In this document: positions 7,332 to 44,991 of the stretch, in pieces
Layout: each line of letters starts with the position of its first letter
How positions within the stretch are numbered: the stretch's first letter is position 1
DNA from: an uncultured Oscillospiraceae bacterium
Lineage (GTDB): Bacteria > Bacillota > Clostridia > Peptostreptococcales > Anaerovoracaceae
DNA: 64,000 nucleotides
Direction of reading: 5' to 3'
Assembly (NCBI GenBank): GCA_964370025.1
Contig: CAYJGJ010000004.1
Span: forward strand, 6,216 to 70,215
The notes under the pieces: generated by a model
Database searches by the model: none
The model's input: the letters and a program-made list of their open reading frames with translations, nothing else
What the model was told of the DNA's origin: nothing
Program-made: the position numbers and the translations under genes

Positions 7332-7403
7332 AGAGTCATCTTAATATCAGTTATTATTGTTGTTTGTAAATTGTTTTAATATCGTAATCTAGGAGACATA
7401 AAG

Positions 7404-8126: not shown

Positions 8127-8190
8127 CATGTTGTAATAATCATTAGTAATAATTTGATATAATAAAAATCATGACATGGGAATTTACTTG

Positions 8191-9303
8191 TTATGATTTT
8201 TTGCTTTTAGCATTTATTCTTAATTGTCCACAAGCGGCATCTATGTCATCACCTAATTTGCGCCGAATCGTAGCAGCTATACCATTTTGTTCTAATACAT
8301 TTTTGAATCGTATTGAGTTGTCTCGAGACGATGAAGTAAGTAGGGTTTCACTTACAGCGTTTAGAGGTATCAAATTCACATGTGCATTCATTCCTTTTAA
8401 TAATCTAGAAAGTGCTTCAGCTTCTATTTTACTATCGTTTTTATTTTCAATTAATGCGTATTCATAAGTGATGCGTCGATTTGTAATGGCAGAGTATTTT
8501 TTGCACGTTTCAATCAGATCTAAAATATTATAGCGATTGTTTATAGGCATTATCTCACTACGTTTAATGTCATTGGAGGAATGGAGCGATATGGCAAGGT
8601 TTACTTGTGGGAAGTCGTTTGCGAATTGGATTATTTTCGGAGCAAGTCCGCAAGTTGAAACAGTGATATTACGCATTCCGATATTTAATCCCTCTTTGGA
8701 ATTTATAAGATGAATAAACTTTGTAAGATTATCATAATTATCAAATGGTTCTCCTATTCCCATTACCACGATATGATTAATCCCTGAAGTATTCTCTTGA
8801 ATAGTAGGGGAATTGTTTGAATTTTTTTTCATAATGGAGTGCGAAGCATTAACAGTGGATTTTTCTGATACGATATTATTGTGTATATCTAGTATTTGAG
8901 ACAGCATTTCCCCAGCAGTGAGGTCTCTGACGAACCCGCCTAATGTGGAGGCACAAAAAACACATCCCATCTTACATCCGACTTGCGACGAAATGCAGAC
9001 AGAGTTTCCATACTTATAAGTCATATAGACACTTTCGATAAAATTCCCATCGTTTAGCTGGAAAAGATATTTGCGAGTGGAATCCTTTTTTGAAATTTGT
9101 AACTGCTCTATTTCGAGCGGCAAAATTGCATAGTTTTCTATTAATTTTTGACGAAGAGAAAAGGGCAAGTTAGACATTTCTCTAATATCCGTCTCGCCCT
9201 TATGTATTCGCTCAAAAACCTGTTTCCCTCTGAATTTTTGTTCATCAAGTTTAATCATCAGATTTTGAATCTGAGATAAGTCCAGTTCTCTAAGATTTAT
9301 CAT
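8191..9303 (-). CDS. rlmN: 23S rRNA/tRNA adenine-C2 methyltransferase RlmN (radical SAM)
   Basis: CISSQVGCKMGCVFCAST radical-SAM cluster motif, MGIGEPFDNY, C-terminal DIDAACGQL. Length 370 aa. Confidence 0.9.
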   Translation of the reverse strand: MINLRELDLSQIQNLMIKLDEQKFRGKQVFERIHKGETDIREMSNLPFSLRQKLIENYAILPLEIEQLQISKKDSTRKYLFQLNDGNFIESVYMTYKYGNSVCISSQVGCKMGCVFCASTLGGFVRDLTAGEMLSQILDIHNNIVSEKSTVNASHSIMKKNSNNSPTIQENTSGINHIVVMGIGEPFDNYDNLTKFIHLINSKEGLNIGMRNITVSTCGLAPKIIQFANDFPQVNLAISLHSSNDIKRSEIMPINNRYNILDLIETCKKYSAITNRRITYEYALIENKNDSKIEAEALSRLLKGMNAHVNLIPLNAVSETLLTSSSRDNSIRFKNVLEQNGIAATIRRKLGDDIDAACGQLRINAKSKKS

Positions 9304-27518: not shown

Positions 27519-28736
27519 TTAAGATTGTTTGTATGTTGACAAAAAATCTCGTATGTGTCCAGTTGCCTCTTTGATTAAAGTAACATCAGGAAGATATACA
27601 ATTCTAAAGTGATCGGGTTCGCTGTGATGGAATCCTCCGCCACGAACTAAGAGTACTTTTTTCTCTTTGAGGAGATCGAATACAAATTTTTCATCACTTG
27701 TAATATTGAATTTTTTAATGTCAAGTTTGGGGAATATGTAAAATGCCCCTTTAGGTTTGACGGCAGATAGTCCTGGAATATCGTTCATTTCCTTATATAT
27801 TAATTCGCGTTGTTCATATACTCTTCCACCAGGAAGTAAGTCAGGATTTTTGACATCTGAATCTTTAAGCGCATACTCTACGAGCCGTTGCGCTGGAACA
27901 TTTGAACAAAGACGCATAGAAGATAACATGTTTATTCCATCAATGTATCCAGAAATTTTTTCTAACGCCCCGGAGAACATCATCCAACCTATTCTATATC
28001 CACAAACATAATGAGATTTGGAAAGTCCTCCAAATGTCACGCAAGGGAACTTATCCCCTAACGATGCTATCGGATAATGTACGTTGTCATCAAACAAAAG
28101 CCGGTCGTATATTTCATCAGAAAAAACTATAAGTTCTTTTTCTTCTGCAAGTTTAACTACTTCGAGTAGGAATTCCTTAGGGTATACCGCACCTGTTGGA
28201 TTGTTCGGATTTATTAAAATAATCCCTTTAGTTTTGTCGTTTATTTTGCTCTTGATATCATTTATATCGGGCACCCAATCGCTTTGTTCGTCACATATAT
28301 AGTGAACTGCTTTTGCACCTGTTAGTGTAACCGACGCTGTCCATAAGGGATAATTTGGTGAAGGTAGTAGCATTTCATCCCCGGGATTTAAAAGGGCTTG
28401 CATTGAAAGCTGTATTAACTCGGAAACGCCATTTCCTGTATATATATTATTAGGAGAAGCATTCGATATACCGTTTCTTGTGTAGTAATTGCAGATAGCT
28501 TCTCTTGTATCTAGGAGTCCTTTTGATTCAGAATATCCGTCAGAAGACCTTAACCCATTAATCATTTCTTCTACCAAATCGGATGGTGCATTAAGTCCAA
28601 AGGGTGCGGGATTACCTAGGTTTAGCTTGACAATTTTATCTCCAAGCTTTTCCATACGCATAGCTTCATCCAGTATTGGTCCTCTAATGTCATAAAATAC
28701 ATTATCTAGGCTAGTTGATTTTTTGAATTCTCTCAT
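27519..28736 (-). CDS. Class I/II PLP-dependent aminotransferase (AlaA/AlaC-like)
   Basis: N-terminal YDIRGPILDEA...KLNLGNPAPFGL typical of alanine aminotransferase-type enzymes. NPNNPTG, and SKS..VCGYRIGW carrying the PLP lysine. Confidence 0.8.
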   Translation of the reverse strand: MREFKKSTSLDNVFYDIRGPILDEAMRMEKLGDKIVKLNLGNPAPFGLNAPSDLVEEMINGLRSSDGYSESKGLLDTREAICNYYTRNGISNASPNNIYTGNGVSELIQLSMQALLNPGDEMLLPSPNYPLWTASVTLTGAKAVHYICDEQSDWVPDINDIKSKINDKTKGIILINPNNPTGAVYPKEFLLEVVKLAEEKELIVFSDEIYDRLLFDDNVHYPIASLGDKFPCVTFGGLSKSHYVCGYRIGWMMFSGALEKISGYIDGINMLSSMRLCSNVPAQRLVEYALKDSDVKNPDLLPGGRVYEQRELIYKEMNDIPGLSAVKPKGAFYIFPKLDIKKFNITSDEKFVFDLLKEKKVLLVRGGGFHHSEPDHFRIVYLPDVTLIKEATGHIRDFLSTYKQS

Positions 28737-29540: not shown

Positions 29541-30809
29541 TTAGATTTTTGGACTTTCAAATATTTCTTTTTCTTTAATTTTAATATATTTCTCTATAAA
29601 CTCACTTCCTAGATGTTCACTTACAAAACTACTTTTTCGTGCAAGTTCAATAGCTTCATTTAAATTTTTAGGTAGTGAATTTAATTTTTTTTCAATAATT
29701 TCATCTGAAGATAATGATTTAATATTGATAGGATTTTCGAGCTCCAAATTGTTTTGAATTCCATGTAATCCCGCATGTAAAATTAGTGAAAAAGCAATGT
29801 ATGGGTTTAATGTTGGATCTGGAGACCTCAGTTCCATTCGTTCTCTTCCGTTAGTAGCAATTGGAATTCTTACAATTCCTGAGCGGTCTTTATCTGACCA
29901 TGTAATATATGTTGGGGCCTCAAAAGAGCCGAAGCGTTCATACGAGTTGTTGATTGGGTTCAAAAAAAGAGTGATTTCCGCAATTTTATCAATAATGCCA
30001 GCTATGAACATCTTTGCATATTTATAATTTTCACTAGTAGCATCAGAGAAAACATTTTGTCCATCTTTGTGAAGAGAAATATTTAGATGTAACCCGCTCC
30101 CACTTTTATCTTCAAGCGGCTTTGGTAGAAAGGATGCATACAATCCATTTCTAGAGGCAAAAGAATTGACAATGGTTTTAAATGTTAAAAAGTTATCGGC
30201 GGCAGAAAGTGGGTCACTAAATTTAAAATCTATTTCGTTTTGTCCGGGACCACGCTCATGGTATGAATTTTCAGGGTTTAGCCCCATTTCTTCAAGGCAT
30301 AAGCATATTTCTCGTCTAATGTTTTCTCCCTTATCGAGAGGTGATATGTCGAGGTATGTGCCATTATCTAATGGTTTATCTGTAGGCTCATCAATTTCAT
30401 CATTTTTAAAGAGATAAAATTCACATTTGGTTCCGATTTTACAGCTATATCCGAAACTACTCAAGTGTTTTATAGCTTTTTTAAGCATACTTCTGCCATC
30501 TCCTGCAAAAGAAGTGTTATCTGGATTCTTTATATCGCAGTAGAAGCGAAGCACAGCGTTTGTCTGTGGTCGCCATGGAAGCAAACTTAGACTTTCTATG
30601 TCTGGAAAAAGTAATAGATCAGAGTTGCTCATTTCTGAAAAGACGTTTATTGCGGATGAATCAATGGATCTTCCATCGGAAAAAGCATATTCCAATTCGG
30701 TTGCCATAACCGATATATTTTTAGAAATCCCAAATGGATCACAAAATCCAAGACGAATAAATTTGACATCATTTTCTTCGATGAATTCCGAAATTTCTTT
30801 ATTAATCAC
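29541..30809 (-). CDS. glnA: Glutamine synthetase, type I-like (short, 422 aa)
   Basis: N-terminal beta-grasp VKFIRLGFCDPFGISKN. NEIDFKF, GSGLHLNISL, MELRSPDPTLNPYIAFSLILHAGLHGI. GTG start 9 nt after GGAGGTG. Confidence 0.85.
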   Translation of the reverse strand: MINKEISEFIEENDVKFIRLGFCDPFGISKNISVMATELEYAFSDGRSIDSSAINVFSEMSNSDLLLFPDIESLSLLPWRPQTNAVLRFYCDIKNPDNTSFAGDGRSMLKKAIKHLSSFGYSCKIGTKCEFYLFKNDEIDEPTDKPLDNGTYLDISPLDKGENIRREICLCLEEMGLNPENSYHERGPGQNEIDFKFSDPLSAADNFLTFKTIVNSFASRNGLYASFLPKPLEDKSGSGLHLNISLHKDGQNVFSDATSENYKYAKMFIAGIIDKIAEITLFLNPINNSYERFGSFEAPTYITWSDKDRSGIVRIPIATNGRERMELRSPDPTLNPYIAFSLILHAGLHGIQNNLELENPINIKSLSSDEIIEKKLNSLPKNLNEAIELARKSSFVSEHLGSEFIEKYIKIKEKEIFESPKI

Positions 30810-30830
30810 TTTAAAAGCACCTCCAATACT

Positions 30831-30908
30831 AAAAAAGCGTTCATCAAACTAATAACATTCCCGCGAAGTCGGGACTGCTATTGAAGCAATTGATGAACGC
30901 CATTGTCC
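30831..30908 (-). promoter_or_regulatory. glnA 5' leader: hexaloop hairpin competing with an intrinsic terminator (ANTAR-type attenuator candidate)
   Basis: On the minus strand, GGAC-AATGGC-GTTC (30908-30895) overlaps the 5' arm of the stem GCGTTCATCAA/TTGATGAACGC (30900-30890 with 30847-30837). Apical CCCG-ACTTCG-CGGG hairpin, then U6 (30836-30831), then the RBS. Confidence 0.6.
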
Positions 30909-30914
30909 ATATTA

Positions 30915-30944
30915 TTTATACCAAAAAAATATGTGCTTTGTCAA
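30915..30944 (-). promoter_or_regulatory. Candidate sigma-A promoter for glnA (TTGACA-18 nt-TATAAA)
   Basis: On the minus strand, TTGACA at 30944-30939 and TATAAA at 30920-30915. The leader hairpin starts about 7 nt downstream. Confidence 0.5.
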
Positions 30945-30994
30945 TCGCTAATTAATTATTTTTGAAAAATATGATAAATTATTTTAAAAAAGTA

Positions 30995-31023
30995 TTGACA
31001 ATCAAAAAATAATATGACATATT
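30995..31023 (+). promoter_or_regulatory. Candidate promoter for the asnA array (TTGACA-17 nt-CATATT)
   Basis: Perfect -35 TTGACA at 30995-31000 and weak -10 CATATT at 31018-31023. Divergent to the glnA promoter. Confidence 0.4.
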
Positions 31024-31034
31024 TGCATGATAAA

Positions 31035-31079
31035 CAACAAAGGCGTTGTGGACCTGACGGTTCGCGACGCCTTTTTTTT
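31035..31079 (+). promoter_or_regulatory. asnA 5' leader: hexaloop hairpin competing with an intrinsic terminator (ANTAR-type attenuator candidate)
   Basis: CAAC-AAAGGC-GTTG (31035-31048) overlaps the 5' arm of the 13-bp stem GGCGTTGTGGACC-TGAC-GGTTCGCGACGCC (31042-31071). T8 follows at 31072-31079, 28 nt before the asnA ATG. Confidence 0.6.
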
Positions 31080-31107
31080 ATTAATTCATAAGATAGGAGT
31101 GAAATTT

Positions 31108-32112
31108 ATGAGTAAAATGATGAAAATATGTCGAAATGAAAAAACATTATCTACATATCAAACACAAATGGCAATAGGCAGAGTAAAGAGAGTATTCGAG
31201 GATAATTTAAGCCAAAATTTAAATTTAAAAAGAGTTTCAGCTCCGCTGTTTTTAACTGCATCCACGGGTCTAAACGATGATCTTAATGGGATAGAACGTC
31301 CAGTTTCATTCGATATTGCAGAAACAAAAACAGATGCAGTTGTTGTACACTCACTCGCAAAATGGAAACGATATGCTCTTTTTAAATATAATTTTCCTGT
31401 TGGAGAAGGTTTGTATACAGATATGAATGCCATACGACGGGATGAAGAGATGGATAATTTGCATTCTATTTATGTTGACCAATGGGATTGGGAAAAGGTA
31501 ATAGATGAAAAAACTAGAAATAATGAAACTCTAAAAGAGACAGTTAATCAGATTGTATCTGCAATTTGTGATACGCATGACATTATCAACAAGGAATACG
31601 GTCTACCTCCAAGGATTTCAAGAGAAGTGAGTTTCATAACTACTTATGAACTTGAGGAAATGTATCCGGAACTTTCTCCTAAAGAGCGTGAAAATGAATA
31701 TTTAAAGGAGCATAGGACAGCTTTCATTATGCAAATAGGTGATTTTTTAAAGTCGGGACAGAAACATGATGGAAGAGCGCCGGATTACGATGATTGGGCT
31801 CTGAATGGGGATATTCTATTCTGGAGTGATATTTTAGATCGTGCATTTGAAGTTTCATCTATGGGTATTAGAGTGAGTCCTAAATCTTTAGACGAACAAT
31901 TAACTAAAGCAGGCGCAGACGAGCGAAGAACATTAGATTTTCACAAAATGCTGCTCGAAGGGAAATTACCCCTTACTATAGGTGGAGGTATTGGACAGTC
32001 TAGACTTTGTATGTTGCTTCTGGGAAAGGCTCACATAGGAGAAGTTCAAGTTTCTATATGGGATCAAGAAACGATAGATAAGTGTGCGGAATTAGGTCTA
32101 GAATTGTTATAA
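31108..32112 (+). CDS. asnA: Aspartate--ammonia ligase (asparagine synthetase A)
   Basis: Collinear with E. coli AsnA: VVHSLAKWKR, HSIYVDQWDWEKV, RAPDYDDW, LNGDILFW, ELSSMGIRV, IGGGIGQSRLCMLLL. ATG 31108 follows TAGGAG. The ORF-track start 31027 would translate the leader terminator. Confidence 0.9.
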   Translation: MSKMMKICRNEKTLSTYQTQMAIGRVKRVFEDNLSQNLNLKRVSAPLFLTASTGLNDDLNGIERPVSFDIAETKTDAVVVHSLAKWKRYALFKYNFPVGEGLYTDMNAIRRDEEMDNLHSIYVDQWDWEKVIDEKTRNNETLKETVNQIVSAICDTHDIINKEYGLPPRISREVSFITTYELEEMYPELSPKERENEYLKEHRTAFIMQIGDFLKSGQKHDGRAPDYDDWALNGDILFWSDILDRAFEVSSMGIRVSPKSLDEQLTKAGADERRTLDFHKMLLEGKLPLTIGGGIGQSRLCMLLLGKAHIGEVQVSIWDQETIDKCAELGLELL

Positions 32113-32124
32113 GGAGGAGAGAAA

Positions 32125-34212
32125 ATGAGCTATGTTCCAAAATTGTTCGCAAGCAAAGTATTCAATGATGAGGTGATGCGTGACAGATTGCCTAAAGATA
32201 TATATAAAGCTCTGAAGGAAACGATCGAATTAGGGTTGTATTTGCAGCTCGATGTCGCAAATGTAGTTGCTACAGCTATGAAGGATTGGGCCGTGGAAAA
32301 AGGCGTAACGCACTTTACTCACTGGTTCCAACCTATGACGGGGATTACAGCGGAAAAGCATGACAGTTTTATTTCCCCTATTGCGGGTGGAAATATAATA
32401 ATGGAATTTTCCGGAAAAGAGCTTGTAAGGGGGGAGCCGGATGCGTCTTCTTTTCCAAGTGGTGGGATAAGAAGTACCTTTGAAGCTAGAGGATATACCG
32501 TATGGGATACAACCTCATATGCGTTTATAAAAGATGATGTGTTGTGTATACCGACAGCTTTTTGTTCGTATTCTGGCGAAGCACTCGACAAAAAAACACC
32601 TCTCTTACGCTCAATGGAGGCACTGAGCAAACAATCATTGCGAATTTTAAAATTGTTTGATAACACGACGGCAAAACGCGTGAATTCTACGGTTGGACCG
32701 GAACAAGAGTATTTTTTAGTAGATAAGAGTGTTTTTTTGAAACGTCCAGATCTTATGTACTGTGGAAGAACTTTGTTCGGGGCAAAACCTCCCAAAGGAC
32801 AAGAGCTGGAAGATCATTATTTCGGTGCAATCAAGCCTCGTGTTTCGGCTTTTATGAAAGAGTTAGATGAAAAATTATGGGAACTTGGAATCATGGCGAA
32901 GACGAAACATAACGAAGTTGCGCCTGCACAACACGAGTTAGCACCAATTTTCGAAACAACTAATATTGCTACAGATCATAATCAACTCACTATGGAATTA
33001 ATGAAAAGCATAGCTGATAAACATGATCTCGCATGCTTGCTTCATGAAAAGCCATTCGCGGGGGTAAATGGTTCTGGAAAACACAATAATTGGTCCTTAT
33101 CTACAGATACAGGTATAAACTTATTAGAACCAGGTGAAACTCCTTATGATAATGCACAATTTGTATTGTTTTTGGTAGCTGTTATTAAAGCGGTTGATAA
33201 ATATCAAGATCTTTTACGAGTATCTGTTGCAAACTCAGGAAATGATCATCGATTAGGTGGGAATGAGGCTCCACCGGCAATTGTTTCAATGTTTTTGGGA
33301 GACGAGTTAACACAAATCTTGCAGTCACTTGAAAACAATGAAGAGTACAAAGGTGTAAATAAGTCTAAAATGAAATTAGGTGCAGTAGTACTTCCTAATT
33401 TTCCCAAAGACACTACAGATAGAAATCGCACATCTCCTTTTGCTTTCACAGGCAATAAATTTGAGTTTCGCATGCTAGGATCCACTTTTTCAATTTCTGG
33501 TCCAAACATCGTATTAAACACGATAGTTGCGGAAGTTTTGAGTGAATTTGCCGATATATTAGAGAGTGCGGATGATTTCAAAGTATCTCTAGGGGAACTT
33601 GTTAGAAATACAATAAAGAATCACAAGAGAATTATCTTTAATGGAAACAATTATTCTGAGGAATGGGTTGACGAAGCTAATAAAAGGGGACTATTAAACT
33701 TAAAAACAACTGTCGATGCACTTCCGGAATTTGTGAATAAAAAAAATATTGAACTTTTTGTTAAGCATAATGTATTTACAGCAAATGAAGTTCATTCTCG
33801 ATACGAAATAATGATGGAAAATTACCATAAAACAGTTCATATAGAGGCCCTGACTTTCATAGAAATTGTAAAAAAACATTTTACACAGTCGACGATGAGT
33901 TTCCAAAAGGAATTGCTTGACGTTGCTATCAATAAAAAGATGTTCGAGATTGATTCAAGTTTAGAGGAGAGAATAATACAAAAATGCACATATCTAATTA
34001 AGGAAACATATAGAAATGTCGAAACATTAGAGAATAGATTAATAGCAACAAAAGAGATAAACGATACTCTAGAACTTGGAATTTATTATAGGGACAGCAT
34101 TTACTCATTAATGATTGAAACAAGAGTAATGATCGATGAATTGGAAACAATTATTCCTTCTGAATACCAAACGTTACCAAGTTATAGTGAGATACTTTAT
34201 AGCGCAAACTAA
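32125..34212 (+). CDS. glnN: Glutamine synthetase type III
   Basis: 695 aa with the GS-III N-terminal domain ([23 protein letters not shown]). Catalytic region [31 protein letters not shown]. Confidence 0.9.
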
Positions 34213-34276
34213 AAATATATTGTATTATATGTATATGATTTATTAAAAGATAGTGCTTTTTAAAGGAGTATTGAGA

Positions 34277-35686
34277 ATGAACGACAAGTTAAATGAAGAA
34301 TGCGCAATTTTTTCCGTTAGTGTAGATGAAAAAGAAGCTGTAGGTATTACTTACAATGCATTACTTGCTTTACAGCACCGAGGTCAAGAGGGCGCAGGAA
34401 TAGCTGCGATAGATGGTAACAAAATAATTTGTCATAAAAACGTGGGGCTAGTCTCGGAAGTATTTTCTGCGGATATGCTTTCGGGTATGCCCAAAAGTTA
34501 CGTTGCTGTTGGGCATAATCGTTATTCCACAACAGGCACGAATGTTAAAGAAAATGTAGGTCCTTTTGTTACAGAATTCCTTACAGGGCGTATTGCAACA
34601 GCTCATAATGGTAATATCATTAATGCCAAAGAAATTAAGGAAGAATTAATCAATCATGGACTTAATTTTCATGCCACAAGTGATAGCGAAGTCATTTCTT
34701 CTTTAATTGGATATCACATCATGAAGTGTGGAGATGCTTTTGAAGGGATTTCTGAGGCAACAAAGAAGCTAAAAGGTGCATTTTCACTAATAGTTTTAAA
34801 TAGTAAGAATGTAATTACAGCAGTACGTGATGCTAACGGATATAGACCACTTTGCATTGGTAAAAATGAGCATGGAATGGCGGTCGCCTCTGAAAGCTGC
34901 GGGCTTGAAGCTTGCGGTTTTCAGTTCGTTAGAGATGTGAAACCAGGTGAAATTGTTGTAATCGAAAAAGGCAAAATTATTCATGAGGAAATTGTGTTGA
35001 CACAAAGGAGTGAGCATTGCGGTCTATGTATTTTCGAATACGTGTATTTTGCTCGTCCAGATTCAACTATCGATAATCTTAATGTATATGAAGCAAGGGT
35101 AAACATGGGGAAAATTCTTGCGGAAGAATACCCTGTTAATGCGGATATCGTATGTGGTGTTCCCGATAGCGGCTTAGAGGCTGCTATCGGATATAGTGAG
35201 CATAGTGGGTTGGAATTAAAGCAGGGATTTGTCAAGAATAGATATATTGGCAGAAGTTTTATATACCCTACGCAAAGCCAGCGAGAAAATGCTGTAAGGC
35301 TTAAGCTTAATCCACTGGTAGCAAATCTCAAAGGAAAACGTGTAGTACTCGTCGATGATTCAATTGTACGTGGAACAACTAGCGCAAAGATAATTAAGGC
35401 ATTAAAAATGGCAGGAGCCAAAGAAGTCCACATGAGAATTTCTTCGCCTCCTTTTCTCTACACTTGTCACTTCGGTACCGACATTGATAGCGAAGAAAAT
35501 CTAATTGCCAACAAAATGAGTTTAGATGAAATAAGAAAAAAAATAGATGCTGATAGTTTGGGATATATAAGTGTAAAAGGACTTAAAACAGCATGCAATA
35601 AATCAGGAATGAAATTCTGTACAAATTGTTTTACAGGTGATGGAATGGAATCTCAAATATCTAAGTTTGACTTGGAAGCAAAATAA
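34277..35686 (+). CDS. purF: Amidophosphoribosyltransferase
   Basis: Ntn nucleophile context NEECAIFSV, LQHRGQEGAGIA, PRTase loop VVLVDDSIVRGTTS, C-terminal Cys ligands. AAAGGAG lies before ATG 34277. Confidence 0.92.
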   Translation: MNDKLNEECAIFSVSVDEKEAVGITYNALLALQHRGQEGAGIAAIDGNKIICHKNVGLVSEVFSADMLSGMPKSYVAVGHNRYSTTGTNVKENVGPFVTEFLTGRIATAHNGNIINAKEIKEELINHGLNFHATSDSEVISSLIGYHIMKCGDAFEGISEATKKLKGAFSLIVLNSKNVITAVRDANGYRPLCIGKNEHGMAVASESCGLEACGFQFVRDVKPGEIVVIEKGKIIHEEIVLTQRSEHCGLCIFEYVYFARPDSTIDNLNVYEARVNMGKILAEEYPVNADIVCGVPDSGLEAAIGYSEHSGLELKQGFVKNRYIGRSFIYPTQSQRENAVRLKLNPLVANLKGKRVVLVDDSIVRGTTSAKIIKALKMAGAKEVHMRISSPPFLYTCHFGTDIDSEENLIANKMSLDEIRKKIDADSLGYISVKGLKTACNKSGMKFCTNCFTGDGMESQISKFDLEAK

Positions 35687-35731
35687 ATATAACTGGCAAT
35701 AATTCATACTTAAGTATAAAGGAGTAATAGT

Positions 35732-37333
35732 ATGAAAAAATATATTTTCGTAACAGGAGGTGTTATCTCTGGGCTGGGGAAGGGAATCACTGCAGCTTCA
35801 CTAGGCAGATTGCTAAAGCAAAGGGGATTACGAGTAACAGCGCAAAAACTTGATCCATATATCAATATAGATCCTGGGACAATGAACCCACTCCAACATG
35901 GTGAGGTTTTTGTGACTGATGATGGTGCCGAAACAGATCTTGACTTGGGACATTACGAAAGATTTATCGACGAAAACTTGACAAAACTCTCTAATTTAAC
36001 ATCTGGTAGGGTATATTGGAACGTATTAAACCGTGAGCGCGAAGGGCATTATCTCGGACAGACAGTCCAAGTAATTCCACATATTACTGGAGAAATCAAG
36101 GATTTTATTTACGCTGGAGCTCGCAACAGCGACTGCGACATACTTATATCAGAAATTGGTGGAACTACAGGAGATATAGAAAGTGGTCCGTTTATAGAAG
36201 CTATACGTCAAATTTCACTTGAGGTAGGGAGCGAAAACTGTATTTTTATCCATGTTACTCTAGTTCCATATCTTAAAGGATCCAAAGAACACAAATCTAA
36301 GCCGACACAGCATTCAGTTAAGGAATTGCGGTCGATGGGAATATCGCCGAATATTATCGTAGCAAGGGCGGATGAACACTTAAGCGAGGATATCCTTAAG
36401 AAAATTTCACTATTTTGCAATGTAAAAGAAGATTGCGTCATAGAAAACACAACTCTAAATGGTTTATATGAAGCACCTATAATGTTGCATGAAAACGGGT
36501 TAGATGAAGTAGTTTGCCGCGAACTAGGACTTAAATTGCCCGAGGCTGACTTGATAGAATGGCGCGAAATGACAAAAAAAATAAATAATAGAAATAGTGA
36601 AAAGAAAATAGGCATAGTTGGGAAATATGTAGATCTTCACGATGCCTATCTGTCTATTATAGAAAGCCTTAATCATGCCGGATACGAGACGGGAGTAAAT
36701 GTTAATATTAAGTGGATCGATAGTGAAACTGTCAATGAAGATAGCGAAAATGAGCTATTCAGTGACTTAGATGGAATGATAATTCCAGGCGGTTTTGGCG
36801 ATAGAGGTATTGAGGGAAAAGTTACTGCTTGCAAATATGCGAGAGAAAATAATCTTCCATTTCTCGGAATTTGTTTAGGAATGCAAATTGCCGCGATTGA
36901 GTTTGCGAGGAATATTTGTGGCATTAAAGATGCAAATTCAGAAGAATTCGATTCGAATTCAAAACATAAAGTCATTGATTATATTCCTGAACAATTGAAA
37001 ATAACACAAAAAGGGGGAACGATGCGATTGGGGGCATATCCTTGTTTCGTAAAAAAAGGTAGCTTGTTAAATAATTTATATAATAGTGATAAAATTACCG
37101 AAAGACACCGTCACCGATTTGAATTTAATAATGAGTACAGAGAAATGATGTTAGAAAACGGTCTTGTTTTTTCTGGCGTATCCCCTGATGGAACACTAGT
37201 AGAAGCAATAGAAATTCCAGAGAATAAATTCTTTGTAGGAGTCCAATTTCATCCTGAATTTAAAAGTCGGCCTAACAAGCCGCATCCATTGTTTGTAGGG
37301 TTACTAAACTCAACGATAAATCAAGAAAGGTAG
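35732..37333 (+). CDS. pyrG: CTP synthase
   Basis: [32 protein letters not shown], GATase GICLGMQ and HPEF. Confidence 0.95.
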
Positions 37334-37341
37334 CGTATAAT

Positions 37342-38055
37342 ATGGAAAAAAGAGAGATAATGTACGAGGGAAAAGCTAAAAAGGTTTTTTCTACAGATGA
37401 ATCTGAATATTGCATTGTATCGTATAAAGACGATGCTACAGCATTTAATGGCGAAAAAAAGGGGACAATTGTAGGGAAAGGCGAAGTAAATAATAGGATG
37501 TCAAATTTTATGTTTGCGAAGCTCGAAAAAAAGGGAATAAAAACACATTTTGTGAAGGAGCTTGATGCAAGAAATACCGTTGTTAAAAAAGTCGATATTA
37601 TTCCTTTGGAGGTAATCGTAAGGAATATAGCGGCAGGAAGTCTAGCTACTAGGCTTGGTATTCCAGAAGGTACAATTATGAAGGAAACGGTTTTAGAGTT
37701 TTGCTATAAAAATGACGAATTGGGGGACCCTATGGTCAACGAGTATCATATTTTAGCTTCGGAGTTCGCAACAAAAGAAGAAATTGATATTATCTCTGAT
37801 ATGAGCATGAAAGCAAATGACATAATGCTTAAATACTTTAAGACTGTCAATATAGATTTAATAGATTTTAAACTCGAATTTGGGAAGACGAGCAAAGGAG
37901 ATGTGATTTTAGCCGATGAAATATCCCCAGATACATGTAGATTTTGGGATAGTGATACAGGAGAAAAACTTGATAAGGATAGATTTAGACGTGATATGGG
38001 TGGAGTTGAGGAAGCATATGCCGAAATGATGAAAAGACTTGGAATCGATAAGTAA
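37342..38055 (+). CDS. purC: Phosphoribosylaminoimidazole-succinocarboxamide (SAICAR) synthase
   Basis: [35 protein letters not shown]. Length 237 aa. Confidence 0.93.
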
Positions 38056-38065
38056 GGAGTATAAT

Positions 38066-39499
38066 ATGCAAAGAGACACGTATGAATCGCCTTTATGCTC
38101 GAGATATGCGGAGAAAGAAATGAAGTACTTGTTTTCTCCGGACATGAAATTCAAAACTTGGCGAAAACTATGGATTGCACTTGCAGAAGCTGAAAAAGAG
38201 CTTGGGTTGAATATTACAGATGAGCAAATTAGAGAACTTATGATCAATGCAGAGAATATAAATTATGAGATCGCAGAGAAACAGGAGAAAATCGTTCGCC
38301 ACGACGTAATGAGTCATGTCTATGCTTATGGACAACAGTGTCCTAATGCGATGCCAATAATACATCTTGGTGCCACGTCGTGTTATGTAGGTGATAATAC
38401 GGATATTATTGTAATGACTGAAGCAATGAAAATCGTAAAGCGAAAGATAATTACTTTAATTGAAGCATTGTCAGATTTCGCAATGAAATATAAGGACATG
38501 CCAACGCTTGGATTTACACATTTTCAAGCAGCGCAGCCTACTACTGTAGGAAAAAGGGCCGCCTTGTGGATTGCCGATCTAGTAAGTGATCTTGAGGATA
38601 TCGATTATTTATTATCGGGAATTAAGCTTTTGGGGTCAAAAGGTACAACAGGCACGCAAGCAAGTTTTCTGGAACTTTTTGAAGGCGACCATGATAAAGT
38701 AAAATTGCTCGATAAAAAGATTGCCGAGAAAATGGGATACAGCGATTGTTATTCTGTAAGTGGTCAAACGTATTCAAGAAAAATTGATTATAGAATTCTT
38801 TCTACTTTAAGCAGTATTGCTCAAAGTGCAACAAAGTTCTCAAACGATATCCGGCTATTAGCACACCTAAAGGAGATTGAAGAACCTTTCGAAAAAGATC
38901 AAATCGGCTCGTCTGCAATGGCATATAAAAGAAATCCTATGAGAAGTGAGCGAATAGCCTCACTCGCAAGATATATTATTATTGATGCACTAAACCCAGC
39001 GATAACATCCGCCACACAGTGGTTTGAAAGAACTCTTGACGATTCTGCAAACAAGAGAATCAGTATTCCAGAGGCGTTTTTGGCTACTGATGCCATTTTA
39101 AATTTATACATAAATGTAGCTGATGGATTAGTTGTTTATCCGAAAGTTATAACCCAAAGACTTATGAATGAACTTCCATTCATGGCTACTGAAAATATTA
39201 TGATGAATGTAGTTAAAAAAGGCGGGGATAGACAAGAGCTTCATGAGAGAATAAGAATACATTCTCTAGCTGCGGCAAAAAAAATTAAAGAAGAGGGTGC
39301 CGAAAATGATCTATTAGAGAGAATTGCAGCAGATCCATTGTTTGCAGTGACGAAGGAAGACCTTAACGATATTCTAAACCCATCTAAATATGTAGGTAGA
39401 GCTCCGGAACAAACAGAAGAATTTATTAATGAAGTAGTAAATTCGATTTTGGAAACTCACAAGGAAGAATTCAAAGAAAAAATCGAAATTTATATTTGA
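38066..39499 (+). CDS. purB: Adenylosuccinate lyase
   Basis: YESPLCSRYA start typical of PurB. GSSAMAYKRNPMRSE fumarate-lyase signature. AAGGAG lies before ATG 38066. Confidence 0.93.
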   Translation: MQRDTYESPLCSRYAEKEMKYLFSPDMKFKTWRKLWIALAEAEKELGLNITDEQIRELMINAENINYEIAEKQEKIVRHDVMSHVYAYGQQCPNAMPIIHLGATSCYVGDNTDIIVMTEAMKIVKRKIITLIEALSDFAMKYKDMPTLGFTHFQAAQPTTVGKRAALWIADLVSDLEDIDYLLSGIKLLGSKGTTGTQASFLELFEGDHDKVKLLDKKIAEKMGYSDCYSVSGQTYSRKIDYRILSTLSSIAQSATKFSNDIRLLAHLKEIEEPFEKDQIGSSAMAYKRNPMRSERIASLARYIIIDALNPAITSATQWFERTLDDSANKRISIPEAFLATDAILNLYINVADGLVVYPKVITQRLMNELPFMATENIMMNVVKKGGDRQELHERIRIHSLAAAKKIKEEGAENDLLERIAADPLFAVTKEDLNDILNPSKYVGRAPEQTEEFINEVVNSILETHKEEFKEKIEIYI

Positions 39500-39644
39500 T
39501 AAAGTAATAAATTCACTTTGGATTGTCACTGATAAGAGTCTATAGTAAAACGAAAGTAATATTCAATAAAACTCTATATCAAGTTTGAACAATCCTCAGG
39601 GAGAACTCGAAGAAAACTACACAAAAGAGCGAAAGGGAAATATA

Positions 39645-40934
39645 ATGGTAAAAGCAATAGTGGGCGCATGTTGGGGTGACGAGGGCAAAGGGAAAATAAC
39701 AGATGTTTTCGCCGAGAGTTCCGACATTGTTGTGAGATTTCAAGGTGGCAGCAATGCGGGACATACAATCATAAACAATTATGGTAAATTTGCACTTCAT
39801 CAACTTCCTTCAGGAGTATTCAGAGAAAATACGATTAACATAATTGGAAATGGTGTCGCACTTTCTGTGGAAAATTTTGTAGAGGAAATAGAGGAACTAA
39901 AGTCAAGGGGTGTGCCAAAGCCTAAAATTATAATTTCGGATAGATGCCAAATCGTTATGCCGTATCACAAGGAACTTGATAGTATGGAAGAAGCGAGGCT
40001 GTCAACGAAATCTTTTGGGTCGACAAAATCGGGAATAGCACCGTTTTACTCTGATAAATATGCAAAAATTGGCTTCCAAGTAAGCGAACTTTTTGATGCA
40101 AAAGAATACTTGCTCGAAAAAATTGAGGCAGTTTGTGAAATAAAAAATTTACTGTACACTAAATTGTATAACGCTACCTCACTTGATCCATCAGAAATAT
40201 ACGATACACTTATGAAGTATAAAGAACAGATAACTCCGTATGTAGCAGATACTTTCACTATTTTGAGAGATTCAGTTAAAAATGATAAAACAATATTACT
40301 TGAAGGACAACTTGGCTCATTAAAGGATCCAGATTTAGGAGTTTATCCCATGGTTACATCATCTTCTCCAATAGCAGGTTTTGGAGCTGTAGGCGCAGGA
40401 GGAATACCACCTTATGCGATTAAGGAAATTATTTCGGTTGTAAAGGCATATTCAAGTTCAGTAGGTGCAGGGGAATTCGTCAGTGAAATCTTTGGCACCG
40501 AAGCAGATGAACTTCGAAAAAATGGAGGAGACGGAGGAGAATATGGCGCAACAACGGGAAGACCTAGAAGAATGGGCTGGCTTGATTTAGTAGCTGCTAG
40601 ATACGGATCCCAGCTTCAGGGTGCGACATCTGTAGCGTTTACGGTTATAGATGCATTGGGATATTTAGATGAAATTCCTGTATGCGTTGCCTATGAGCTA
40701 GCTGGTAAAAGAATTGATCATTTCCCAACTACGACTGAACTAAAAAAGTGCACCCCAATATTAGAAGTTTTGCCTGGATGGAAGTGCGACATAACTGGAA
40801 TTACATCGTATGAGGAACTTCCGCGAAATGCAAAAAAATATATTGAATTCGCGGAAAGACATTTGGGGATTCCGATCTCATTGATTTCGAATGGTCCCAA
40901 AAGAGAACATATTATATATAGAAAGATAAATTAA
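39645..40934 (+). CDS. purA: Adenylosuccinate synthetase
   Basis: VGACWGDEGKGKITD P-loop, GGSNAGHT, GTTGRPRR. Start ATG 39645 was chosen by homology of the N-terminus. Confidence 0.93.
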   Translation: MVKAIVGACWGDEGKGKITDVFAESSDIVVRFQGGSNAGHTIINNYGKFALHQLPSGVFRENTINIIGNGVALSVENFVEEIEELKSRGVPKPKIIISDRCQIVMPYHKELDSMEEARLSTKSFGSTKSGIAPFYSDKYAKIGFQVSELFDAKEYLLEKIEAVCEIKNLLYTKLYNATSLDPSEIYDTLMKYKEQITPYVADTFTILRDSVKNDKTILLEGQLGSLKDPDLGVYPMVTSSSPIAGFGAVGAGGIPPYAIKEIISVVKAYSSSVGAGEFVSEIFGTEADELRKNGGDGGEYGATTGRPRRMGWLDLVAARYGSQLQGATSVAFTVIDALGYLDEIPVCVAYELAGKRIDHFPTTTELKKCTPILEVLPGWKCDITGITSYEELPRNAKKYIEFAERHLGIPISLISNGPKREHIIYRKIN

Positions 40935-40948
40935 TTAGAGGTAATTAC

Positions 40949-42772
40949 ATGTGTGGAATAATTGGATACATAGGATATGAGCAGGCTACTCCATTTTTGT
41001 TAAATGGGTTAAAAAAACTTGAATATAGAGGTTATGATTCTGCAGGTGTTGCTGTTTGGAATGGGAAAGGAATCGAGATAGCAAAATCAAAAGGAAGACT
41101 TAATAATCTAGTCGATTTAATCGATGGTGGGAAAAAAATACAAGGTAGTGTGGGGATTGGTCATACGCGATGGGCGACGCACGGGGCTCCATCAGATTTG
41201 AATTCTCATCCACACCCCAGTTCGGGTGGAAAATTTGCGGTTGTTCACAACGGCATAATTGAAAATTATCTAGTGGTAAAAAACAAACTTACAAGCAAAG
41301 GGGTGAATTTCGCATCGGAAACGGACACAGAAGTAATCGCACAAATGCTGGAATACTATTATGATGGTGATGTCATGTCTACAATCAACAAAGTTGTGTC
41401 GAAAGTAGAGGGGAGTTACGCTCTTGCAATTATTTGCAAAGATACCCCAGATATACTTTATGCAGTAAAAAAAGATAATCCATTAATAGTTGGATTAGGC
41501 ACAAGCGAAAACTACATCGCATCGGATATTCCAGCTATTTTGGCAAAAACAAGGGATATATACAGACTTTCTGACGGTGAAGTTGCAATACTTACTACTG
41601 ATAATGTTTCCGTGTACAATAGCGACAATGAAAAAGTTGAAAAAGAAGTAGAAAAAATCACGTGGGATATAGAATCAGCCGAAAAAGGTGGTTATGAGCA
41701 TTTCATGATGAAAGAAATTATGGAGCAGCCTGATGCAATTAACAAAACTATACTTCCACGAATTAAAGATGGCAATATTATACTAGAGGAGCTAACACTA
41801 TCTAAGGAATATTTAGAAAATATATCTAAGATGTTCATAGTCGGATGTGGTACAGCGTACAACGTAGGCGTTGCTGCAAAATATATGTTTGAAGAACTGC
41901 TTAGAATATCTGTAGAAGTTGAAACAGCTTCTGAATTCAGATACCGAAACCCCGTAGTTGATGATAAAACTTTAGTGATAATTATAAGCCAATCTGGAGA
42001 AACCGCAGATTCTCTAGCCGCGTTGAGGCACGCAAAAAGCCAAGGTGCCAAAACAATTGGAGTTGTAAATGTCATGGGGTCTACTATCGCAAATGAAAGC
42101 GACGACGTTATATATACATGGGCAGGAATTGAAATTTCTGTAGCTTCCACTAAGGCATATAGTACGCAGCTAGCAGTAATGTATTTGATAGGAATATATA
42201 TGTCTGACAAACTCGGAAAGCTTGAAAAAAAGACAAAAGAAAAGTATATCTCTGAATTGCTCTCCATTCCAGAAAAAATAAAGAAGCTTCTCGACAATAA
42301 GGTGGAAATACAAAAAATTGCAGGGCATCATTTTAATGCAAACGATATGTATTTTATTGGACGCAATGTAGACTATGCTACGTCGCTAGAAGGTTGTTTA
42401 AAGCTTAAAGAGATTTCGTATATCCACTCGGAAGCCTATGTCGCAGGTGAGCTTAAGCATGGTCCAATCTCATTAATTGAAGATGGTACGATAGTAATTT
42501 CGATTGCTGCGTATAGGAGGTTGTTTGATAAGACGATTTCGAACATTAGGGAGGTAAAAGCAAGAGGTGCTGTGTGTTGGACTATAACTACGGATGGACA
42601 AGAGGTGCCAGAAGATATCGAATATGTTTCGCATATGCCAGAAATTACAGATTTCATGTTGCCTTCGCTTACAATTATAGAATTGCAGTTGTTTTCATAC
42701 TATGTGGCAGCGATGCGCGGTTGTGACATTGATAAGCCGCGTAACCTTGCGAAATCAGTAACTGTAGAGTAG
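40949..42772 (+). CDS. glmS: Glutamine--fructose-6-phosphate aminotransferase
   Basis: MCGIIGYIG Ntn start, two SIS domains (SQSGETADS), C-terminal KPRNLAKSVTVE. Confidence 0.95.
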   Translation: MCGIIGYIGYEQATPFLLNGLKKLEYRGYDSAGVAVWNGKGIEIAKSKGRLNNLVDLIDGGKKIQGSVGIGHTRWATHGAPSDLNSHPHPSSGGKFAVVHNGIIENYLVVKNKLTSKGVNFASETDTEVIAQMLEYYYDGDVMSTINKVVSKVEGSYALAIICKDTPDILYAVKKDNPLIVGLGTSENYIASDIPAILAKTRDIYRLSDGEVAILTTDNVSVYNSDNEKVEKEVEKITWDIESAEKGGYEHFMMKEIMEQPDAINKTILPRIKDGNIILEELTLSKEYLENISKMFIVGCGTAYNVGVAAKYMFEELLRISVEVETASEFRYRNPVVDDKTLVIIISQSGETADSLAALRHAKSQGAKTIGVVNVMGSTIANESDDVIYTWAGIEISVASTKAYSTQLAVMYLIGIYMSDKLGKLEKKTKEKYISELLSIPEKIKKLLDNKVEIQKIAGHHFNANDMYFIGRNVDYATSLEGCLKLKEISYIHSEAYVAGELKHGPISLIEDGTIVISIAAYRRLFDKTISNIREVKARGAVCWTITTDGQEVPEDIEYVSHMPEITDFMLPSLTIIELQLFSYYVAAMRGCDIDKPRNLAKSVTVE

Positions 42773-42799
42773 TTGTAACTAGATTATGTAGGAGAAAAA

Positions 42800-44332
42800 A
42801 TGCCGGAAGTTTCATATAAGGAGAAAATAGTAGTACTTGATTTTGGAGGGCAATATGCACAGTTAATTGCACGAAGAGTTCGCGATTTGAAAATTTACTG
42901 TGAAATAAAATCATATAAAACAGACCCTGAACAGTTGAAGGAATACAAGGGTATAATTTTCACAGGTGGACCTAATTCTGTTTATCTCGATGAGTCACCA
43001 AAGTGCTCGAAACAAATCTTTGAAATGGGAGTTCCTATATTAGGAATTTGTTATGGTGCGCAATTAATGGCGCACATGCTCGGTGGCGAGGTTAAATCTG
43101 CAATAAATAGGGAATATGGAAATTGTGAAGTCGTTTTTGAAAATAATTCTAAGGTGACATTTGGAAAAAGTGTTACCTGGATGAGTCATACGGATTATAT
43201 CTATAGTTTACCTGAAGGATTTAGGATTACGGGTATGAGCGAAGGATGTTCTTGCGCATCGATGGAAAATGAAGAAAAAAAACTGTATGGTATGCAATTC
43301 CACCCCGAGGTAGAGCATAGCGAAAGTGGTAATGAATTTATAAAGAACTTCCTATATGATATATGCGGTTGTCAGGGTGATTGGCAGATGAAATCATTTG
43401 CAAATACAACCATAGAAAATATTCGAAATCGAGTAGGTGATAAAAAAGTTCTCTGTGGACTTTCGGGAGGCGTAGATTCTACGGTTGCGGCAATGCTAGT
43501 CCATAGAGCAATAGGTCAGAAGTTGACTTGTATTTTTGTCGATCACGGAATGTTGCGAAAAAATGAAGGTGATATGGTAGAGCGAGTTTTTAAAAATGAG
43601 TTCGAAATGAATATTATTAGAGTAAATGCACAGGAAAGATTTCTACAAAGACTTGAAGGGATAATCGATCCTGAGACTAAGAGAAAAATTATCGGAGAAG
43701 AATTTGTTCGTGTGTTTGAAGAGGAAGCTAATAAACTTGGTGAATTGGATTTTTTATGCCAAGGAACAATATATCCTGATGTTGTAGAAAGTGGAGAAGG
43801 TGAGGCAGCAGTAATAAAAAGTCATCACAATGTAGGCGGACTTCCAGAAGAGATTGGATTTGGGGGAATCCTTGAACCATTGAGAGATTTATTCAAAGAT
43901 GAGGTAAGAAAAGTCGGGATAGAGCTTGGTATTCCCGAAAACTTAGTTTGGAGACAGCCATTTCCAGGTCCTGGATTGGCAGTGCGAATCATAGGAAATA
44001 TTACACAGGAGAAAATAGCTCTTTTGCAGGATGCAGACGAAATATTTAGGAAAGAGATAGCAAATTTTGGTCTCGAAAGGAAAATCAATCAATATTTTGC
44101 TGTCCTTTCTGGAATGAAGACAGTAGGAGTAATGGGGGACGGTGGCATATACGCAGAAACGATTGTATTAAGAGCTGTAACTACAAGTGATTTTATGACA
44201 GCTGACTGGGCAAAGCTGCCATATGACTTAATGGAAAGAGCCTCTAATCGAATTACCAATGAAGTAAAAGGGGTCAGTAGAGTTCTTTATGACATAACAT
44301 CTAAACCTCCATCTACCATCGAATTCGAATAG
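42800..44332 (+). CDS. guaA: GMP synthase (glutamine-hydrolysing), full length
   Basis: GATase GICYGAQLM and HPEV, ATP-PPase SGGVDS, C-terminal PPSTIEFE. Length 510 aa. Confidence 0.95.
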
Positions 44333-44358
44333 AGAATGATGTATCAGAACAGTATATA

Positions 44359-44991
44359 TTATGAATTATTTTTTGTAGGAGTTTCGTTTTTGCTATGTGG
44401 GATGTATAATCCCATTTTTTTGTAGTAAGAAAAAAGTCTCATTGCGACGATGATACCGATGCTACTGTAAACAGAAAGGTCAAGTCCTATTATCGGGTAT
44501 GCAAACCACAGGAATATACTTCCAATGATTGCGCAAAGTGCATATACTTCTTCTCTCAATATTACCGGTACACGCTGGCATAGCAAATCACGGATTACAC
44601 CACCTCCTACAGCAGTTATTGTCGACACGAAAATAAATTGCGGAAAATTGTAGTCCAATTCAATAGCTTTAATCCCCGCATTGACCGCAAAAGCTGCAAG
44701 ACCGATGGCATCACACACCTGCATGAATATTAAAAACTTCTTATTGTTCCATTTGATTGCAAAAGATAAAGTAGTTACAATCATTACAATTGCAATGGTG
44801 GAGTAATTACTAAAAAATACAGGAACGCCTTCATCCATGATTGCATCTCGTAATATCCCCCCACCACAAGCCGTGGTAAATGCGATTACATAAATTCCCA
44901 ACATGTCAAGATGGTGTTTAATTGCAACATAGGCACCAGAAACGGCAAAAGCTGCTACTCCGATATATTCAAAATAATCATTTACGTTCAT
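44359..44991 (-). CDS. UPF0126/TRIC-like trimeric cation channel family membrane protein
   Basis: Two repeats each with a glycine motif (GGGILRD, GGGVIRD). ATG 44991 follows AGGGGG. The ORF-track start 45051 was judged too early. Confidence 0.75.
   Translation of the reverse strand: MNVNDYFEYIGVAAFAVSGAYVAIKHHLDMLGIYVIAFTTACGGGILRDAIMDEGVPVFFSNYSTIAIVMIVTTLSFAIKWNNKKFLIFMQVCDAIGLAAFAVNAGIKAIELDYNFPQFIFVSTITAVGGGVIRDLLCQRVPVILREEVYALCAIIGSIFLWFAYPIIGLDLSVYSSIGIIVAMRLFSYYKKMGLYIPHSKNETPTKNNS

Follow-up and report, generated by a model that had tools for sequence, protein, structure and literature searches.

NitR of Clostridium saccharobutylicum is an ANTAR antiterminator that induces the genes of glutamine synthetase (GS) and glutamate synthase (GOGAT) upon nitrogen limitation (as summarised in PMC6316151, citing Stutz 2007). 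In many bacteria, ANTAR targets cluster before nitrogen genes, including those of PII, amtB, GS, GOGAT, and asparagine synthase (PMC3369931). We analyzed here a 64-kb stretch of DNA (the window) from an uncultured Oscillospiraceae bacterium (contig CAYJGJ010000004.1), and more precisely an array of nine genes on its + strand (31108-44332), in which enzymes of ammonia assimilation stand together with enzymes of purine, pyrimidine, and amino-sugar synthesis. We consider it rather probable that this array forms one operon behind an attenuator controlled by an ANTAR protein, which would tie the enzymes of nitrogen assimilation and distribution to the nitrogen status of the cell.

The array reads asnA-glnN-purF-pyrG-purC-purB-purA-glmS-guaA, and all nine open reading frames (ORFs) are intact (Table 1). 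The ORF list, NCBIfam, Pfam, and the inspection of start codons and ribosome-binding sites (RBS) agree on these gene calls. Eight of the nine genes exceed the curated cut-off of an NCBIfam equivalog model, the exception being glnN, which was typed by Pfam, and each gene is preceded by a GGAG-like RBS. The ORF proposed automatically for asnA opens at 31027 and runs through the leader; the true start is ATG 31108. In array order, the intergenic gaps measure 12, 64, 45, 8, 10, 145, 14, and 27 nt, five of them being of 8-27 nt only. An initial annotation of this DNA had described nine consecutive genes on the same strand, with gene names and gap lengths; we obtained identical gap values, and the protein families bear out all nine names. 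By their chemistry, AsnA (aspartate plus ammonia) and GS-III use ammonia or make glutamine; PurF, PyrG, GlmS, and GuaA are glutamine amidotransferases; PurC and PurA add aspartate; and PurB resolves both aspartate adducts.

Operons are usually interpreted as pathways. The same annotation held that this array is not a pathway operon, with purD, purN, purM, purE, purK, purH, and purL being absent, and this proved right. Indeed, a tblastn search with the E. coli PurM, PurN, PurD, PurH, PurK, PurE, and PurL proteins (E ≤ 1e-5) gave zero matches in the window and in a sample of 80 loci surrounding GlnN homologues (L001-L080; one genome per species, all Clostridia-like; 1.38 Mb), and at E ≤ 0.1 only trivial domain-level matches appeared in the 1.38 Mb. 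Neither consecutive purD/N/L/M/E/K/H steps nor a purine riboswitch, which would mark a pur operon, is present in the array.

The array has the layout of a single transcription unit, with its genes on the same strand, short gaps (8-145 nt), and no internal intrinsic terminator. The best promoter-like site of the + strand precedes it, with an expected transcript start at about 31029-31031 (a consensus-based prediction), and the sole strong pair of promoter and terminator on this strand sits at the 5′ end of the array. From 31075 to 44396, the + strand is free of terminator-like sites, and the first one after the array falls within the tail of a convergent ORF of the − strand. In the corresponding locus of a sister genome (GCA_964367585.1; locus L085), the + strand terminator matches inside the array are weak, intracoding, and at chance level. 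Promoter-like matches inside the array of the window are also at chance level (53 vs. 58 expected) and none is usefully placed in a gap, since the only one located in a gap (39618-39646) overlaps the start codon of purA. The long spacer between purB and purA was a candidate for a regulatory element, which we rejected: its structure is not significant (z = 0.07), it contains no copy of the leader model described below, and its length is not conserved (19 nt in the sister genome vs. 145 nt in the window).

Known RNA elements were searched with Rfam. At gathering score, no family matched in the whole 64 kb, and so no glmS ribozyme, purine riboswitch, PyrR site, or T-box was detected; at E ≤ 5, the region 30700-44600 showed nothing relevant. 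Rfam also gave some low-scoring matches within the array (gltS RNA at 35597, psbA 3′ UTR, and others), which we dismissed as intracoding or far below threshold. The glmS ribozyme is usual in Firmicutes; here, Rfam finds no RF00234 upstream of glmS (40935-40948).

The leader of the array can adopt two alternative pairings. The first is a small hairpin, P1 (ACAAC-AAAGGC-GUUGU, 31034-31049), and the second is a terminator made of a 16-bp hairpin (31039-31074) followed by U8, the 5′ half of which is provided by the loop and the 3′ arm of P1. The hairpin of the leader folds with −30.1 kcal/mol (z = −6.7). P1 alone reaches −4.1 kcal/mol vs. −26.0 kcal/mol for the terminator construct; since P1 is far weaker, termination should be the default and a factor should be needed to hold P1. 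The covariance model built on the family (R1) finds no copy inside the array. On the other strand, the divergent glnA unit is preceded by a leader of the same family, which consists of P1 (AUGGAC-AAUGGC-GUUCAU), a 45-nt insert, and then UUGAUGAACGC-U6, which closes the terminator (−32.9 kcal/mol).

We then characterized this leader family in the 80 loci, defining the full motif as an AANGGC hexaloop hairpin with, at most 130 nt downstream, a partner of the loop and 3′ arm and a U-run. This motif occurs about 76 times, whereas reversed sequence gives 6 occurrences and locally shuffled sequence 1-3. Among 36 aligned short-form leaders, neither the loop A,A,N,G,G,C nor the closing C-G pair varies, and both alternative pairings covary, far above slid controls: 94% of the cells are paired in the terminator, with 110 cells changed on both sides, and 93% in P1, with 24 double changes. 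These leaders had been selected for pairing, the covariation and the enrichment being the informative parts. When R1 was applied to three loci outside its seed, it returned exactly one copy in each, directly before asnA (E = 7e-10, 3e-9, and 5e-7); two of these three copies carry the loop AAAGAC together with a compensating GUCUUU in the terminator arm. A second ANTAR hexaloop was sought in the leader and rejected. Indeed, the second hairpin is the variable top of the terminator, with loops of 3-8 nt and no conserved A1/G4, and there is no room upstream of P1. The conserved element is thus a single hexaloop hairpin overlapping the terminator, and the family has no counterpart in Rfam. Two forms can be distinguished, a short one (ACAGC-AAAGGC-GCUGU) before glnN, asnA, and amtB, and one with a long insert (AUGAAC-AAAGGC-GUUCAU) before glnA and GOGAT.

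In other genomes, the genes found behind these leaders are first of all those of nitrogen assimilation (glnN 48, glnA 16, amtB-glnK 15, GOGAT 14, and asnA 11), and also those of nucleotide and amino-sugar synthesis (pyrG 7, purA 7, purF 5, carA 3, purB 3, purC 2, and glmS 2). The leader even stands immediately before purB (L054), purF (L068), carA (L076), and a purC-purB-purA-purF operon (L047).

The best candidate for a protein acting on this leader is encoded next to the array. The divergent unit contains, directly after glnA, a gene for a small ANTAR protein, and intrinsic terminators are present both in the leader of the array and in that of glnA. This association is recurrent, the ANTAR gene being found in 32 of the 80 loci, almost always right after glnA (itself in 39 loci). 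The protein aligns with the homologous receiver-ANTAR proteins Rv1626, EutV, and AmiR. In its receiver-like domain, however, the phospho-acceptor Asp is replaced by Asn (motif I-N-x-P) and the acidic pocket, including the acidic pair, is missing; both features are seen in the window protein and in the 12 homologues listed among the 33 aligned (13 of 34 rows). Judging from these residues, the N-terminal domain is a pseudo-receiver like that of AmiR, and it probably responds to a ligand or to a partner protein and not to phosphorylation. The short type I GS encoded ahead of the ANTAR gene is a possible partner.

To describe the surroundings of glnN, all ORFs of the 80 loci were clustered de novo and the recurrent clusters were checked by Pfam. 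Besides glnA and the ANTAR gene, the neighbours are, by number of loci, split GOGAT (21), an amtB-PII fusion (19), pyrG (13), purF (12), asnA (11), carA (11), carB (10), asnB (8), purA (7), gltB (6), dapL (5), purB (4), and gatA/gatB (3-4). At least one gene of nitrogen transfer to nucleotides or hexosamines is present in 30 of these 80 loci, and in 24 of the 50 that reach 15 kb.

The exact order of the nine genes did not occur in this sample, i.e., the 80 best loci for GlnN. Closer relatives were reached by looking up the nearest homologues of PurB and AsnA. In the sister genome, whose AsnA and PurB are 84% and 81% identical to the window proteins, the array reads asnA-glnN-gltB-gltD-purF-pyrG-purC-purB-purA-glmS-guaA, with a single leader before asnA, and the flank is the same as in the window (a GGDEF gene, then the aminotransferase, ANTAR, and glnA genes on the − strand). 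Elsewhere, in no fewer than six further Clostridia, this functional set is attached to glnA-ANTAR or to asnA-glnN, in orders that differ: glnA-ANTAR-dapF-aminotransferase-carA-carB-purC-purF-purB-purA-glmS-guaA, all on one strand (L093, a contig whose PurB is identical to the one named by NCBI as that of Caproiciproducens galactitolivorans); purB-purA-glmS-glnA-ANTAR-dapF-pyrG-dapL-glnN (L054); asnA-glnN-purC-purB-purA and, separately, glnA-ANTAR-pyrG (L030, Pygmaiobacter massiliensis); glnA-ANTAR-purF-carA-carB-pyrG-asnA-glnN-amtB (L008); glnA-ANTAR-pyrG-purF (L059); and GOGAT-glnA-ANTAR-purF-carA (L071). That the same functional set comes in different orders argues for its repeated assembly under selection rather than for an inherited accident.

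These results bear on the remaining claims of the initial annotation. It had placed a nitrogen-type leader attenuator ahead of the array, and such a leader is there; it had named a lack of conservation as a ground for refutation, which the sister array and the rearranged sets do not bear out; and it had called for a search of internal promoters, the spacer before purA included, which revealed no suitably placed one. Its central idea, a grouping by nitrogen donor, is supported: the same set recurs near glnA-ANTAR or asnA-glnN and the purM, purN, purD, purH, purE, and purK genes never do, but the set is incomplete, with purL occurring nowhere and the window lacking carAB, asnB, and gatAB. Taken as a whole, this earlier reading has the support of the sequence and of comparative genomics.

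Table 1. Position of the array, its predicted signals, and the neighbouring genes in the window
Feature	Coordinates	Strand	Evidence or remark
asnA, aspartate--ammonia ligase, 334 aa	31108-32112	+	TIGR00669, 329.5 bits (cut-off 292.8)
glnN, type III glutamine synthetase, 695 aa	32125-34212	+	Pfam GSIII_N (265 bits), Gln-synt_C, Gln-synt_C-ter
purF, amidophosphoribosyltransferase	34277-35686	+	TIGR01134, 483.9 bits; ORF from 34253, likely start ATG 34277
pyrG, CTP synthase (glutamine-hydrolysing)	35732-37333	+	NF003792, 833 bits
purC, SAICAR synthase	37342-38055	+	TIGR00081, 239.5 bits
purB, adenylosuccinate lyase	38066-39499	+	TIGR00928, 389 bits; ORF from 38039, likely start ATG 38066
purB-purA spacer, 145 nt	39500-39644	+	no terminator, no suitably placed promoter
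purA, adenylosuccinate synthase	39645-40934	+	NF002223, 476.5 bits
glmS, glutamine--fructose-6-phosphate transaminase	40949-42772	+	NF001484, 797 bits; 14 nt past purA
guaA, glutamine-hydrolysing GMP synthase	42800-44332	+	NF000848, 770.5 bits; full length, with glutamine amidotransferase (GATase) domain
Promoter-like site TTGACA-17 nt-(TG)CATATT	30995-31023	+	10/12 consensus matches, TG before second hexamer
Leader attenuator of the array	31031-31082	+	about 50 nt; covariance model R1, 59.3 bits (sequence in the model seed)
First terminator-like site after the array	44397-44415	+	7-bp stem and T-run; weak, consensus match only
Leader of the glnA unit, same family	30825-30912	-	R1 short-form model, 13.9 bits (weak)
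glnA, type I-like glutamine synthetase, 422 aa	29541-30809	-	TIGR00653, 377.5 bits, below cut-off of 429
ANTAR-domain protein, NitR-like, 189 aa	28895-29464	-	PF03861, 54 bits
Class I/II aminotransferase, third gene of the glnA unit	27519-28736	-	best model alanine aminotransferase, below cut-off
GGDEF protein, 640 aa	25280-27202	+	
Second GMP synthase, 432 aa	49371-50669	-	5 kb from the array
Spo0A-type ORF, 192 aa	52772-53350	+	Spo0A C-terminal domain, residues 84-183
PAS-GGDEF-EAL protein, 1330 aa	54536-58528	+	
GGDEF protein, 678 aa	58500-60536	+	

The mechanism that we propose is the following. The nine genes would be read as one long transcript from the single promoter ahead of the leader, and RNA polymerase would first have to clear the strong intrinsic terminator that the leader of about 50 nt contains. 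P1 and the terminator, which share the loop and 3′ arm of P1, would compete, and a protein would hold P1, likely the ANTAR protein encoded next door in the glnA unit, whose own leader belongs to this family too. In analogy to NitR, this protein would antiterminate under nitrogen scarcity. Two groups of enzymes would then rise jointly: those that assimilate ammonia (AsnA, GSIII, and GSI), and those that use the amide nitrogen of glutamine or the amino nitrogen of aspartate for purines, CTP, GMP, and glucosamine-6-phosphate. In this way, the flux to nucleotides and cell wall would be sustained as the donor pools drop.

Several points weigh against this interpretation. The single transcript is something that we infer from the layout alone. 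In most bacteria, pyrG, glmS, purA, and guaA are essential, and a tight terminator of 16 bp and U8 would be lethal in nitrogen-replete cells if the copies of the array are the sole ones; therefore, the terminator would have to be leaky, or internal promoters invisible to our scan would have to exist, or second copies would have to be present elsewhere. In the case of guaA, a paralogue without most of the GATase domain is indeed located 5 kb away. The leader has one conserved hexaloop, whereas the published ANTAR substrate has two in tandem (PMC3369931). The donor logic is incomplete, with purL never joining and many amidotransferase genes (nadE, hisH, and trpG) not being seen. AsnA has a modest affinity for ammonia and fits less obviously in a regulon of nitrogen limitation. 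Finally, purB-purA-glmS-guaA (L092) and purC-purB-purA-guaA (L086 and L091) occur by themselves, each behind a promoter region of its own and without a nitrogen-type leader.

Some of these points would also suit a mere co-directional cluster, in which the leader would govern mainly asnA-glnN and the seven downstream genes would be expressed from internal, near-constitutive promoters, nitrogen control of them being weak or absent. From general knowledge, the essential genes just named should favour nitrogen-independent expression; moreover, the commonest unit behind the leader is asnA-glnN alone, modules of the downstream genes have a promoter of their own in L092, L091, and L086, and the gaps of 64, 45, and 145 nt are roomy enough for promoters. 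We nevertheless hold this explanation to be unlikely. None of these gaps contains a usefully placed promoter, the only gap match running into the start of purA and the overall number of matches being no higher than expected; five of the gaps measure only 8-27 nt; the longest one comes down to 19 nt in the sister array; and the leaders that directly precede purB, purF, carA, or purC in other genomes indicate that nitrogen control of these genes has been selected there. We give still less weight to the idea that the grouping reflects the end-steps and branch points of nucleotide synthesis (first purine step, IMP to AMP, IMP to GMP, and UTP to CTP), accreted by drift or for a reason of growth rate. 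It is generally known that, in Firmicutes, purA, purB, guaA, pyrG, and glmS are mostly not part of the pur operon, being usually solitary and mobile; purB-purA-(glmS)-guaA occurs without nitrogen genes in L092 and L091; and purL, which uses glutamine, stays away. However, glmS, asnA, asnB, carAB, gatAB, dapL, and GOGAT recur in the arrays, yet are no end-steps of nucleotide synthesis. Moreover, purF and purC, which normally belong to the pur operon, have left it without purM, purN, purD, purH, or purE ever coming alongside; guaB, whose product uses no nitrogen donor, was seen neither in the array of the window nor in the Pfam-annotated arrays of relatives (the 80 loci were not searched for it); and these genes became attached to glnA-ANTAR or asnA-glnN in several gene orders.

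The identity of the factor can also be questioned. The leader might not be an ANTAR target at all, nitrogen being sensed by metabolite binding, by another RNA-binding protein, or by ribosome-mediated attenuation. The single hexaloop, which departs from the dual substrate (PMC3369931), speaks in this sense, as do some leader-bearing loci without an ANTAR gene within 10 kb and the ATG at 31027, which opens an ORF across the leader (MINNKG..., with two Asn codons). To us, this is very improbable. With its roughly 16 nt, the conserved hairpin is too small to form a metabolite pocket, and it has no Rfam match; A1 and G4 of the loop, on a conserved closing pair, are features read by ANTAR proteins (PMC3369931); and, among the neighbours, only glnA is more frequent than the ANTAR gene. 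As for attenuation by a leader peptide, we rejected it because ATG 31027 precedes the expected start of transcription and lacks an RBS, and because base pairs, not codons, are conserved.

A few further observations concern the genes discussed above. The stand-alone modules sit just downstream of a divergent glutamate dehydrogenase gene (gdh; 7370-8751, − strand, in L086 and L091; 6930-8273, − strand, in L092), which is directly adjacent in L086 and L091 and separated from the module by gpsA in L092. This adjacency is a further link of the module genes to nitrogen assimilation. In many loci (e.g., L007, L014, L021, and L036), GOGAT is of the split, archaeal-style type, with a putative GATase subunit of 371 aa, an FMN subunit, a GXGXG subunit, a ferredoxin, and an oxidoreductase, and it forms one leader-headed operon, often continuing into glnA-ANTAR. 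The 371-aa subunit (neighbour cluster 3) has no Pfam match at 1e-10 and is named from its context and a reading of its sequence. The window also contains a second GMP synthase gene, the product of which is 58% identical to the array GuaA over the ATP-pyrophosphatase and dimerisation parts and mostly lacks the GATase domain (match only to the first ~55 of 188 profile positions). Since the sister genome has a 427-aa counterpart at the equivalent position (L085, − strand, from 20989), this short paralogue is conserved and not a recent wreck, and it may be an ammonia-dependent GMP synthase backing up the nitrogen-controlled, glutamine-dependent GuaA.

Other genes of the window are more remote from the subject. 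Three proteins of cyclic di-GMP metabolism are encoded on the + strand (Table 1), and the gene of the 640-aa GGDEF protein adjoins the nitrogen locus in the sister genome too (L088, 4480-6402). The Spo0A-type ORF is too short upstream of its C-terminal domain for a full receiver; either its start is miscalled or it encodes a short Spo0A-like protein.

Beyond the window, the chances seem to us evenly balanced that many Clostridia possess a nitrogen-distribution regulon, in which a non-phosphorylatable ANTAR protein, by reading a single AANGGC hairpin, would set both the assimilation of nitrogen and the consumers of nitrogen donors. The assimilation side would comprise GSI, GSIII, AsnA, GOGAT, and AmtB-GlnK, and the consumer side would comprise enzymes of purine, pyrimidine, amino-sugar, and diaminopimelate synthesis, here gathered in a 13-kb operon. 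If so, the synthesis of nucleotide and cell-wall precursors would be wired to nitrogen status and not to its own end-products, a wiring that, to our knowledge, is undescribed for any bacterial nitrogen regulon. Should this control be real, it would add the enzymes that consume assimilated nitrogen to the scope of ANTAR/NitR, beyond ammonia assimilation, account for the lack, in these Clostridia, of the usual end-product controls (glmS ribozyme, purine riboswitch) on these genes, and provide a simple model of how Clostridia of gut, rumen, and digesters match nucleotide and cell-wall synthesis to the ammonia supply. The array is organised by type of nitrogen donor, its set of genes has come together more than once, in varied orders, next to glnA-ANTAR, and the leader family is a compact, highly conserved one-hexaloop RNA outside Rfam. 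Cultured relatives exist, i.e., Caproiciproducens galactitolivorans, Pygmaiobacter massiliensis, and Herbinix hemicellulosilytica.

How does this locus compare with the described systems? When nitrogen is limiting, TnrA/GlnR in Bacillus and NtrC/Nac in enterobacteria also induce GS, GOGAT, and ammonium transport in a coordinated manner, but they act at transcription initiation, unlike the leader attenuation proposed here. As far as we know, their regulons do not include purF, pyrG, purA, purB, purC, guaA, or glmS. In Bacillus subtilis, the purEKBCSQLFMNHD operon, the pyrG attenuator, and the glmS ribozyme show that the same enzymes can be controlled after initiation by leader RNAs in Firmicutes; those controls obey the pathway or its end-products (purines, CTP, and GlcN6P), whereas here the pathway partners are absent and the shared signal is apparently nitrogen status. 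AmiR of Pseudomonas aeruginosa (PDB 1QO0), which the ANTAR protein matches, is likewise an ANTAR protein with a non-phosphorylatable receiver-like domain, but its target is an amidase operon and its activity depends on sequestration by AmiC, a sensor of amides; no AmiC-like gene is present here.

The closest systems remain the ANTAR antiterminators of nitrogen genes. A literature search linking ANTAR or NitR to purF, pyrG, purA, guaA, or glmS, which did not cover the 2007 NitR paper, gave no prior description. The elements described by Ramesh et al. (2012), e.g., in Desulfotomaculum acetoxidans and D. reducens, are, as here, A1/G4 hexaloop hairpins overlapping terminators before nitrogen genes, and one genome can have several of these leaders; in their motif, however, two hexaloops stand in tandem and P2 overlaps the terminator, whereas only P1 is conserved here and P1 itself makes the overlap, and their target lists contain no purF, pyrG, purA/B/C, guaA, or carAB (PMC3369931). 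With the NitR system, our locus shares a small ANTAR gene directly after glnA and terminator leaders before nitrogen-assimilation genes; the NitR regulon, as summarised in PMC6316151, consists of GS and GOGAT, whereas the genes gathered here also include purF, pyrG, purC, purB, purA, glmS, and guaA, to which relatives add carAB or dapL. In conclusion, the type of regulator and its principle, i.e., an ANTAR antiterminator acting on the leaders of nitrogen genes, are already known, and what differs here is the content of the regulon, with its nucleotide and amino-sugar enzymes, and the shape of the RNA, with one conserved hexaloop overlapping the terminator.

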